From a virus, in the IMG/VR virus record IMGVR_UViG_3300037493_005727, positions 5,091 through 69,090 of that record: a stretch of DNA of 64,000 nucleotides; one strand, written 5' to 3'. The notes below the pieces were generated by a model. The model did no database searches, was not told the origin of the DNA, and worked only from the letters and a program-made list of their open reading frames with translations. A program made the translations under genes and the position numbers. Numbering within the stretch: the stretch's first letter is position 1; every line of letters begins with the position of its first letter. Positions 34,623 to 34,964 of this stretch are shown here, one piece after another.

Positions 34623-34964
34623 TGGAGACGGCGGGAATCGAACCCGCGTCCAAAGGTACTCTGTACTTCGGAACTACGTGCGTAGCCACTACCCGTGGCG
34701 TGGTCCTACCAGGTCGTTCTGCTATGTCGCCAGAGGCCGGTTACCTGGCCGAGAAGCCTCTTCGCGTTTGCTCGTGTGTTGCACCTGTGAGCTACTCGAG
34801 CTCCTACCTCACAGATGTCCCTCAGGCCGCGCGAAGCGCGTACTGCGGGAAGTCAACGTTGTCGTTGGCTTTTATTGGTTTTGGTCACTTGGATTTACGA
34901 GATCGTGACCCTGCTCGGCACGCTCCTAGTATTTCGTTCCCCCTGTCGAAACCTTGTCGTCCCC
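34623..34964 (-). ncRNA. ssrA: tmRNA (SsrA), standard one-piece form
   Basis: 5' GGGGACGACAAGGTTTCGACAGGGGGAACG... and 3' ...GGACGCGGGTTCGATTCCCGCCGTCTCCA match tmRNA tRNA-like-domain consensus (G3:U70 pair; T-arm). Internal reading frame after ...AAUAAAA: GCC AAC GAC AAC GUU GAC UUC CCG CAG UAC GCG CUU CGC GCG GCC UGA gives tag (A)ANDNVDFPQYALRAA. CCA not encoded. Confidence 0.8.

Follow-up and report, generated by a model that had tools for sequence, protein, structure and literature searches.

Identification of the tmRNA gene

Does a 342 nucleotide (nt) sequence inside an uncultivated viral genome encode a working transfer-messenger RNA (tmRNA, the product of ssrA), and if so, does it belong to a phage or to a bacterium? 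The sequence lies in a 64,000 nt segment (positions 5,091 to 69,090) of the IMG/VR record IMGVR_UViG_3300037493_005727, the whole of which is here termed the window, and in which a sequence-only reading had placed a minus strand tmRNA gene with canonical 5' and 3' ends. Reading of the minus strand bears this out: the gene runs from a 5' G at position 34964, where the sequence begins GGGGACGACAAGGUUUCGACAGGGGG, to a discriminator A at position 34623, where it ends GGACGCGGGUUCGAUUCCCGCCGUCUCCA. ARAGORN calls the gene at 34622-34964 on the same strand and predicts the tag ANDNVDFPQYALRAA followed by a stop, the coding part of which occupies gene positions 96-143, equivalent to window positions 34869-34822. 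It matches the Rfam family RF00023 with a score of 150.2 bits (E = 4.3e-59) against a gathering score of 47 bits, across model positions 1-374 and without truncation, and is thus not a sub-threshold match to the covariance model. Given the agreement between the strand reading, ARAGORN and the RF00023 score, the presence of a tmRNA at 34623..34964 is far beyond chance.

The gene is collinear with RF00023 from end to end and was not flagged as permuted by ARAGORN. A permuted two-piece tmRNA (RF01849-51, RF04321) was ruled out on account of this collinearity and because the acceptor 3' piece does not lie upstream of the coding piece. A molecule reduced to the tRNA-like domain, of the DS6A type, was likewise ruled out, as the gene has a full mRNA-like domain and pseudoknots, which its homologues have kept. 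No 3' CCA is encoded, the discriminator A being followed directly by CAU.

From its sequence, the gene is very probably a functional one-piece tmRNA gene of a large uncultivated tailed phage with a genome of roughly 190 kb. That it is both genuine and phage-encoded, as originally proposed, is supported by the covariance score, the ARAGORN call, the pseudoknots, covariation in eight homologues, the phage genes on its flanks and the existence of viral relatives of 187-197 kb. The accompanying statement that only a minority of phages encode a tmRNA agrees with the published figure of 2.3% of 18,146 phage genomes (PMC9004378).

A family of nine related tmRNAs

Scans of IMG/VR and JGI metagenomes with patterns from the tag region detected eight homologous tmRNAs in related phage contigs, here labelled L002, L003, L004, L006, L009, L010, L011 and L012, all of which pass RF00023 with scores of 107-145 bits. 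The nine loci diverge by up to about 40% in sequence, and none of them encodes CCA. They form two groups according to the tag. Group A comprises the window gene, L006 and L002, with the tag ANDNVDFPQYALRAA and a single stop. In group B, L010 and L009 have the tag ANSDVELPAWMIGAVAPGLRAAA followed by two stops, L004 and L003 have AN(DN/SD)VELPAWMIGASAPEFRAAA followed by two stops, and L012 and L011 have ANDNVELPAWMIGAVAPEFRAAA with a single stop. The tags of the two groups differ in length by exactly 24 nt, or eight codons.

Structure and covariation

The 5' half of the tRNA-like domain (34918..34964, minus strand, as are all elements of the gene) contains the acceptor strand GGGGACG, a D-loop analogue (GGUUUCGAC) and the 5' strand of helix 2 (H2a CAGGGG, H2d GCGUGC); the 3' half (34623..34681) contains the 3' strand of helix 2, the T arm GCGGG-UUCGAUU-CCCGC, the acceptor strand CGUCUCC and the discriminator A. 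The domain so formed has a 7 bp acceptor stem, a T arm with a UUCGAUU loop and no anticodon arm, its ends being joined by the long helix 2. The alanine identity pair G3:U70 described in the sequence-only reading is present within GGGGACG/CGUCUCC, together with A73. Between the two halves lie the first pseudoknot (PK1; 34883..34917, stems CGAG/CUCG and GGUCAC/GUGACC), the mRNA-like domain, a helix 5 hairpin that spans the end of the tag open reading frame (ORF; hairpin at 34828..34840, CGCGC-UUC-GCGCG), PK2 (34770..34817, stems CAUCUGUGAG/CUCACAGGUG and GCUCG/CGAGC), PK3 (34708..34761, stems AGAGGCU/GGCCUCU and GCCAGGU/ACCUGGU) and a hairpin at the position of PK4 (34685..34699, GCCAC-GGGUA-GUGGC). 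PK1, PK2 and PK3 are all able to form, the last through both of its stems.

Pairing statistics were calculated for 39 base pairs in a MAFFT alignment of the nine sequences, comprising the acceptor stem, the T stem, two helix 2 segments and both PK2 stems. In total, 98.6% of cells were paired and 19 pairs had changed on both sides, values not reached by any of 500 column-shuffled controls; when the 3' partners were slid by 1-3 columns, pairing was only 37-54%. G3:U70 and A73 are found in all nine sequences, with acceptor pairs 4-6 varying on both sides. H1, H2a and H2d are 100% paired and exhibit compensatory changes, three pairs having changed on both sides in H2a and one in H2d; the T stem is also fully paired, with three of its five pairs so changed. 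The 10 bp stem of PK2 is 100% paired with six such pairs, and its second stem is 88.9% paired with three.

Since the whole-gene alignment put the two tag groups out of register at PK1, helix 5, PK3 and the fourth hairpin, these elements were checked by hand, without a formal statistic. Each of them pairs in every one of the nine sequences. Both stems of PK1 do so despite there being six different first-stem sequences (e.g. CAAGG/CCUUG, AAGGG/CCCUU and GCUUU/AGAGC), and the hairpin at the PK4 position is represented by five different compensated stems. Within group B, helix 5 covaries (GCCGC/GCGGC versus GCUGC/GCAGC), as does the second stem of PK3 (GCCGU/GCGGC versus GUCCU/GGGAC). Apart from a full PK4, the structural elements of a tmRNA are all present, and compensatory changes have maintained them across the nine phage loci.

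This pattern bears on whether the gene could be a decaying, non-functional copy acquired from a host. The lack of an encoded CCA, the reduced PK4 and an insertion of ~97 nt following the gene might all be read as signs of decay; however, a pseudogene would be expected to lose its pairing, whereas 98.6% of the tested pairs are intact, with abundant compensation, and the tag frame has been retained over loci differing by up to ~40%. Decay is therefore a very improbable explanation.

The tag reading frame and its Arg-Ala-Ala end

The mRNA-like domain (34822..34876) begins with the context AAUAAAA, which provides a U at -5 and an A at -4, followed by the resume codon GCC, the tag ANDNVDFPQYALRAA and a UGA stop, confirming the small ORF that had been proposed after this motif. 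With its stop codon the ORF spans 34822-34869 and has 15 codons. The U(-5) and A(-4) bases are the counterparts of Escherichia coli U85 and A86, by which the frame is set (PMC2481249). The A at -4 is present at all nine loci, as is an in-frame stop codon. The L002 peptide is identical to that of the window despite two synonymous changes, and in group B five of the ten variable tag codons are synonymous. The constraints on RNA and peptide overlap in this ORF, two of the synonymous changes in group B being compensatory in an intra-ORF hairpin as well (CGGCGC/GCGCCG versus CGGUGC/GCACCG). The frame and the ends of the tag ORF are conserved, and the evidence favours a constraint on it as coding sequence.

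All nine tags end in (L/F)-R-A-A or R-A-A-A, the long tags of group B terminating in AAA with the arginine at -4. The arginine codon lies partly within the helix 5 stem in group A and 5' of the assigned stem in group B, and this difference in placement argues for selection acting on the peptide. A relaxed scan retrieved four tmRNAs outside the family that have the prefix in common and canonical ends, encoding ANDNVELALAA (L044), ANDNVEFNYALAA (L040 and L056) and ANDDVEFESYALAA (L085). As these nearest outside tmRNAs combine the ANDNVE prefix with a canonical ALAA end, the arginine is a derived feature specific to the family. The replacement of the usual LAA by RAA, which had been noted from the window alone, is hence a real feature: it is conserved across the family and absent from the nearest tmRNAs outside it. 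In the papers listed by a literature search for tag strings, neither ANDNVEL nor ANDNVDF occurred, and ALRAA and FRAAA occurred only inside unrelated words.

In comparison with the degron consensus, typically ALAA or AVAA, the window tag retains the terminal Ala-Ala needed by AAA+ proteases, and has at -3 an arginine (LRAA) instead of a hydrophobic residue. With the alanines kept and leucine replaced, the tagged product would probably remain a substrate for proteases, though one bound with a different affinity or with different needs for adaptors; altered protease targeting is thus plausible from the tag sequence. A stronger version is that the tmRNA rescues ribosomes, but that selection has led its arginine-bearing tag to evade the degron pathway of the host ClpXP and ClpAP proteases or to be diverted from it, sparing the proteases during infection or uncoupling rescue from proteolysis. 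The arginine preceding Ala-Ala(-Ala) at all nine loci, in tags of two lengths and in two helix 5 contexts, is in keeping with such selection, as is the canonical ALAA of the outside tmRNAs with the ANDNVE prefix, the first seven codons of L044 even being identical at the nucleotide level; furthermore, leucine at -3 aids recognition by ClpA and ClpX in E. coli (PMC12493166). Against this, the two terminal alanines, which are crucial for docking on ClpX (PMC12493166) and are its strongest determinants, are retained, the long tags end in AAA with the arginine displaced to -4, and the Helicobacter pylori tag, ending ...AKAA, naturally has a basic residue at -3 (PMC12493166). We regard escape from the host proteases, and with it a separation of ribosome rescue by the phage from ClpXP proteolysis through the family-specific arginine, as possible rather than likely.

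The conservation of the mRNA-like domain also bears on the idea that the RNA is mainly a decoy, which titrates host SmpB, EF-Tu or alanyl-tRNA synthetase (AlaRS) and so inhibits host trans-translation. There is precedent in mycobacteriophage DS6A, which has a tmRNA consisting solely of a tRNA-like domain, such molecules being inhibitors of tmRNA (PMC4131195); in addition, no smpB was found in the window, and the tRNA-like domain is fast-evolving in this family. However, a decoy would need neither the mRNA-like domain, A at -4, in-frame stop and peptide that are conserved over nine loci, nor PK1, which is required for tagging and covaries. This makes a decoy improbable, and a tmRNA active in tagging remains the preferred reading.

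Phage origin of the gene

No match to window positions 20000-44000 was found by megablast among 50,697 deposited phage records. The window encodes an rIIA homologue (3532-5625; PHROG E = 4e-95), two helicases, an ATP-dependent DNA ligase, a baseplate-J domain protein, and tail-lysin/tape-measure-like and tail-fibre-like proteins, with phage genes occurring on both flanks of the tmRNA; the helicase and rIIA proteins are less than 40% identical to any protein of a cultured phage. GC content is even, at 57-64%. The ORF upstream of the tmRNA, a vault-like ORF and the ligase are found in the same order, with ~80% amino acid identity, on the 187 kb IMG/VR contig 3300009169_000014, and two further relatives are IMG/VR viral contigs of 188.6 and 196.8 kb. 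The tmRNA itself sits in a tRNA cluster that is syntenic in these 187-197 kb viral contigs. The phage flanks, even GC content and synteny together indicate that the gene is internal to the genome of a large uncultivated tailed phage, and not at a junction between prophage and host.

The same data address whether the gene might instead be a bacterial host's own ssrA beside an integrated prophage, or part of a bacterial fragment mis-binned as viral. The 3' ends of ssrA genes are common integration sites, and L044 is exactly such a case: a tyrosine-integrase ORF (3757-5391, plus strand) runs into the 3' end of its tmRNA in a sequence with a GC content of 61-70%, for which reason we take it to be a bacterial ssrA at which a prophage has inserted. 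No integrase abuts the window tmRNA, however, and phage genes lie on both sides of it throughout the 64 kb, in sequence of uniform composition and within the syntenic cluster of the viral contigs. A scan of 185,579 bacterial and archaeal species, one genome each, for the start of the tag (AA-GCN-ANDNV[DE][FL]P, a pattern that would miss tags of the ANDNVELALAA type) gave two chance matches in archaeal metagenome-assembled genomes, neither with a tmRNA. Either of these bacterial readings is accordingly highly unlikely.

Several observations do weigh against a functional phage tmRNA. No match to a sigma-70 promoter was found upstream of the gene, and tblastn searches of the 64 kb window with E. 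coli and Thermus thermophilus SmpB queries gave no significant smpB candidate (best E = 0.03). In the window gene PK3 is assigned by complementarity, since group A is invariant in this region. The hand check found no convincing second stem for PK4, which appears to be reduced to a hairpin, or at most a minimal pseudoknot. The D-loop analogue of L002 (GGACUCGAU) is off consensus, and the RF00023 score of this homologue is lower, at 107 bits. Finally, because some synonymous changes in the tag are also compensatory in RNA hairpins, they constitute weaker evidence for coding than their number would imply.

A mosaic of tRNA-like domain and core

The family is a mosaic: where phage backbones are nearly the same, with flanks 96-100% identical, the tRNA-like domain and the initiator tRNA beside it reach just 54-87% identity, with compensated changes, against ~93-100% in the core of tag and pseudoknots. 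Between L006 and L002, identity is 95.6% in the upstream ORF and 100% in the non-coding leader that separates it from the tmRNA, falls to 53.8% in the 5' half of the tRNA-like domain, rises to 93.2% in the core, falls again to 60.4% in the 3' half, and is 86.8% in the adjacent initiator tRNA gene (tRNA-fMet). Between the window and L006 the corresponding values are 66.7%, 85.7%, 87.2%, 94.4%, 92.5% and 98.7%, and between the window and L012 they are 83.8%, 75.7%, 67.5%, 56.6%, 67.3% and 78.9%. The differences between the tRNA-like domains of L006 and L002 are compensated in the acceptor, T and helix 2 stems, and the remaining differences in their cores are mostly in PK1. Comparison of L006, L002 and the window reveals that the tRNA-fMet genes, too, differ by compensated stem changes between near-identical flanks. 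Because the window's upstream ORF is closest to that of L012, the carrier of a group B tmRNA, the tmRNA itself has moved between backbones. Furthermore, L002, with a group A core, and L009, with a group B core, have the acceptor stem and T arm in common.

In group A, variation is thus concentrated in the tRNA-like domain and PK1, with hardly any in the tag and PK2-PK4, a reversal of how conservation is usually distributed in tmRNAs. The simplest explanation of the mosaic is fine-scale recombination among co-circulating phages, although diversifying selection on the tRNA-like helices may be an alternative source. Such selection could be for evasion of host nucleases or toxins that recognise these helices, or could equally be for a match to the SmpB and processing enzymes of different hosts. 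The joint proposition that an arms race has been fought over the tRNA-like interface and that the degron has been rewired is rather unlikely.

The RNA gene cluster

The non-coding leader (34965..35071, minus strand) extends from the stop codon of the upstream ORF to the 5' end of the tmRNA and contains a hairpin, CCGCCCUUAAACAAGGCGG, at 34975-34993. It is ~107 nt long, occurs once within the window and is conserved at eight of the nine loci, including L009, where the upstream ORF is unrelated; as it has been kept even beside this unrelated gene, the leader and tmRNA behave as a cassette. The hairpin was considered as a marker of such cassettes and rejected, the motif being found in nine other, unrelated IMG/VR contigs, none with a tmRNA or tRNA.

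Directly downstream in the RNA gene order is the initiator tRNA-fMet(CAU) (34442..34515, minus strand), detected by both ARAGORN and Rfam. Its initiator type, asserted in the sequence-only reading, is evident from the C1xA72 mismatch and the three G:C pairs (GGG/CCC) closing the anticodon stem. In the window, a spacer (34516..34622, minus strand) containing an insertion of ~97 nt separates it from the tmRNA; the insertion is seen only in the window phage, there being just 1-8 nt before the tRNA-Met(CAU) in L006, L002, L010 and L012. It has TAG...TAG flanks, two hairpins and short stretches resembling tmRNA 3' sequence (GGACGCGGG and ACGCTCGTAGT).

The tRNA-fMet had been counted with five other tRNAs, and whilst the former stands, the total does not, as ARAGORN gives seven tRNA genes, three of them (Gly, Val and Lys) at 9.1-9.3 kb and four (Ala, Gln-like, Ser and Met) at 33.3-34.5 kb. 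Those near the tmRNA, all on the minus strand, are tRNA-Ser(UGA) at 33629-33716, the Gln-like tRNA at 33548-33620 and tRNA-Ala(UGC) at 33319-33392, and the order of the RNA gene cluster is matched in L002 and L003. The Gln-like tRNA, reported by ARAGORN as 'tRNA-???', is a tRNA-Gln(UUG)-like gene with a 6 nt anticodon loop, AUUGGA. The copy in L002 (7873-7936) has the same 6 nt loop, and those at L003:12330-12403 and L010:1293-1364 have 7 nt loops in which C or A replaces the universal U33. Recurrence in independent contigs argues that the odd loop is not a sequencing error. Variation in anticodon loops has been proposed as a means of evading tRNA-targeting defences (PMC10264068), and by analogy the loops of these genes recall such variation. 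Two tRNA fragments lie between tRNA-fMet and tRNA-Ser, at ~34330-34400 on the minus strand: a 3' half (...GCGGGTTCGATCCCTGCCTAGTAGCC) is followed by a 5' half (GGGTGCTAGTAGCTCAGTTGGTAGAGCAGCTGACTCAAAA) that ends after the anticodon loop, both containing CTAGTAGC. These may be remnants of rearranged tRNA genes.

Other features of the window

Further afield, the window encodes a treble-clef zinc finger (zf_Tbcl) protein (37062-37544, minus strand), a von Willebrand factor A protein (9700-10833, minus strand) and, according to the Logan gene calls, a response-regulator receiver-domain protein (16260-16673, plus strand). The vault-like ORF mentioned above, of 919 amino acids (30513-33272, minus strand), is a homologue of the Major Vault Protein (MVP), having Pfam matches to MVP_shoulder (5e-23), Vault_3 and Vault, and matching MVP chains in the PDB with E values of ~1e-21 over residues 543-875. 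A syntenic copy in L003 is 81% identical, and copies with ~40% identity were found only in three metagenomic 'huge phage' records (LR756500/501/503). Huge phage LR756500 has the vault gene in common with the window, yet neither a tmRNA nor a tRNA lies within 12 kb of that gene. Viral MVPs have already been reported in a 2023 preprint (10.1101/2023.11.10.566534), of which this ORF is a further environmental example.

Five very large plus strand ORFs, of 797-1482 amino acids, are found at 21706-26154, 44442-48068, 49797-52289, 56494-58887 and 59490-62234. None has a significant PHROG or Pfam match, the only hit being that of the first to DUF6732, at 17 bits against a cutoff of 27, which underlines the distance of this lineage from characterised phages.

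Proposed mechanism and host

With no smpB found in the 64 kb window and no encoded CCA, the tmRNA would presumably depend on factors of the host. It heads a cluster of RNA genes on the same strand, in the order leader, tmRNA, initiator tRNA and further tRNAs, and would be cotranscribed with the tRNAs downstream. The 5' end would be matured by host RNase P and the 3' end trimmed, which in some relatives may be nearly defined by the RNase P cut of the abutting tRNA-fMet. The absence of an encoded CCA implies that the host CCA-adding enzyme would extend the molecule. Charging with alanine by host AlaRS, through G3:U70 and A73, would then be followed by delivery with host SmpB and EF-Tu to ribosomes that, during infection, have stalled on mRNAs that are broken or lack a stop codon. 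Translation would resume at GCC, in the frame set by U(-5)A(-4), adding (A)ANDNVDFPQYALRAA before the UGA stop frees the ribosome, such that tagged proteins would carry ...AANDNVDFPQYALRAA at their C termini. The expected benefit to the phage is that translation capacity would be kept available while mRNAs are being cleaved. The tmRNA and tRNAs may together form a set of RNAs for taking over translation or countering defences, as the sequence-only reading proposed.

The host was sought by two further routes, and neither was retained. Protein similarities are contradictory, with the helicase less than 30% identical to those of Streptomyces, Arthrobacter, Listeria and Bacillus phages and rIIA 38% identical to those of Roseobacter/Phaeobacter phages. 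Nor can the tRNA-like domain serve as an indicator through its 3' end, since at least 120 IMG/VR matches to the window-type sequence mean that it is not diagnostic of the host. A likeness of the rarer L002 and L009 type of domain to betaproteobacterial permuted tmRNAs offers a lead only. The L044 tag ANDNVELALAA is one that we take, provisionally, to be that of Myxococcus xanthus, and if so would point to Myxococcota-like donors.

Comparison with known tmRNAs

To our knowledge, phage tmRNAs are known but functionally uncharacterised. The nine natural variants described here combine two tag lengths and a non-canonical R-A-A(-A) end with tRNA-like modules that can be exchanged while the core stays constant. 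They are ready-made chimeras that could reveal what in a tmRNA has to be matched to its host, and could show whether the phage gains from a change in what becomes of tagged proteins. The gene is also a marker of a lineage of ~190 kb phages from freshwater and sediment, without cultured relatives.

With the bacterial one-piece tmRNA (RF00023), the window gene has in common G3:U70, A73, a PK1 preceding the alanine resume codon, a tag ORF ending in helix 5 and, downstream, PK2 and a PK3 that is able to form. It differs in being found in a phage, in the tag end LRAA in place of LAA or VAA, in having only a hairpin for PK4, and in the absence of CCA and of any smpB found in the window.

The permuted tmRNAs of the betaproteobacterial type (RF01850), found in IMG/VR at L029:240-614, L030:5357-5732 and L028:1-310, are AT-rich and have the tags ANDSDYRLAA and ANDSDYEMALAA. 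Their acceptor and T arm sequence (GGGCCUG ... GACCCCGGUUCGAUCCCGGGCAGGUCCA) matches L002 and L009 at 25 of 26 nt; the one further position, in the T loop, was an N in the search pattern and reads T, A and C in L002, L009 and L029, respectively. The tRNA-like domain of the window gene is of a different, very common type, for which reason this likeness does not assign a host.

The closest tmRNA found outside the family is that of L044 (5328-5689, minus strand, on an IMG/VR contig from genome 2833821713), which is 78-80% identical to the family member L004 over the tRNA-like domain, helix 2 and PK1, and has identical first seven tag codons; it differs in its canonical ALAA end and has different pseudoknots.

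Published catalogues of phage tmRNAs cover mycobacteriophages and Bacillus phage G (PMC4131195) as well as metagenomic huge phages (PMC7162821). In the cultured phages (the Bxz1 group, clusters M and K, Bacillus phage G, and Streptomyces and Stenotrophomonas phages) and in the huge phages, a complete ssrA likewise lies beside tRNA genes, and the presumed role in common is to keep host translation running. The mycobacteriophage tmRNAs align with the window gene only at the tRNA-like ends, with 77-80% identity over ~70 nt, as do those of the Streptomyces and Stenotrophomonas phages in being alignable only there, and the tag of phage GenevaB15, AADVAADYAAVGA, is unrelated to that of the window. 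Apart from the tag end and PK4, the window gene has every testable defining feature of a one-piece tmRNA; it differs by the arginine at -3, the reduced PK4 and the lack of CCA. A phage tmRNA is an already known kind of gene, and what sets this family apart is the Arg-Ala-Ala end, together with the swapping of tRNA-like domains, in a lineage without cultured relatives.

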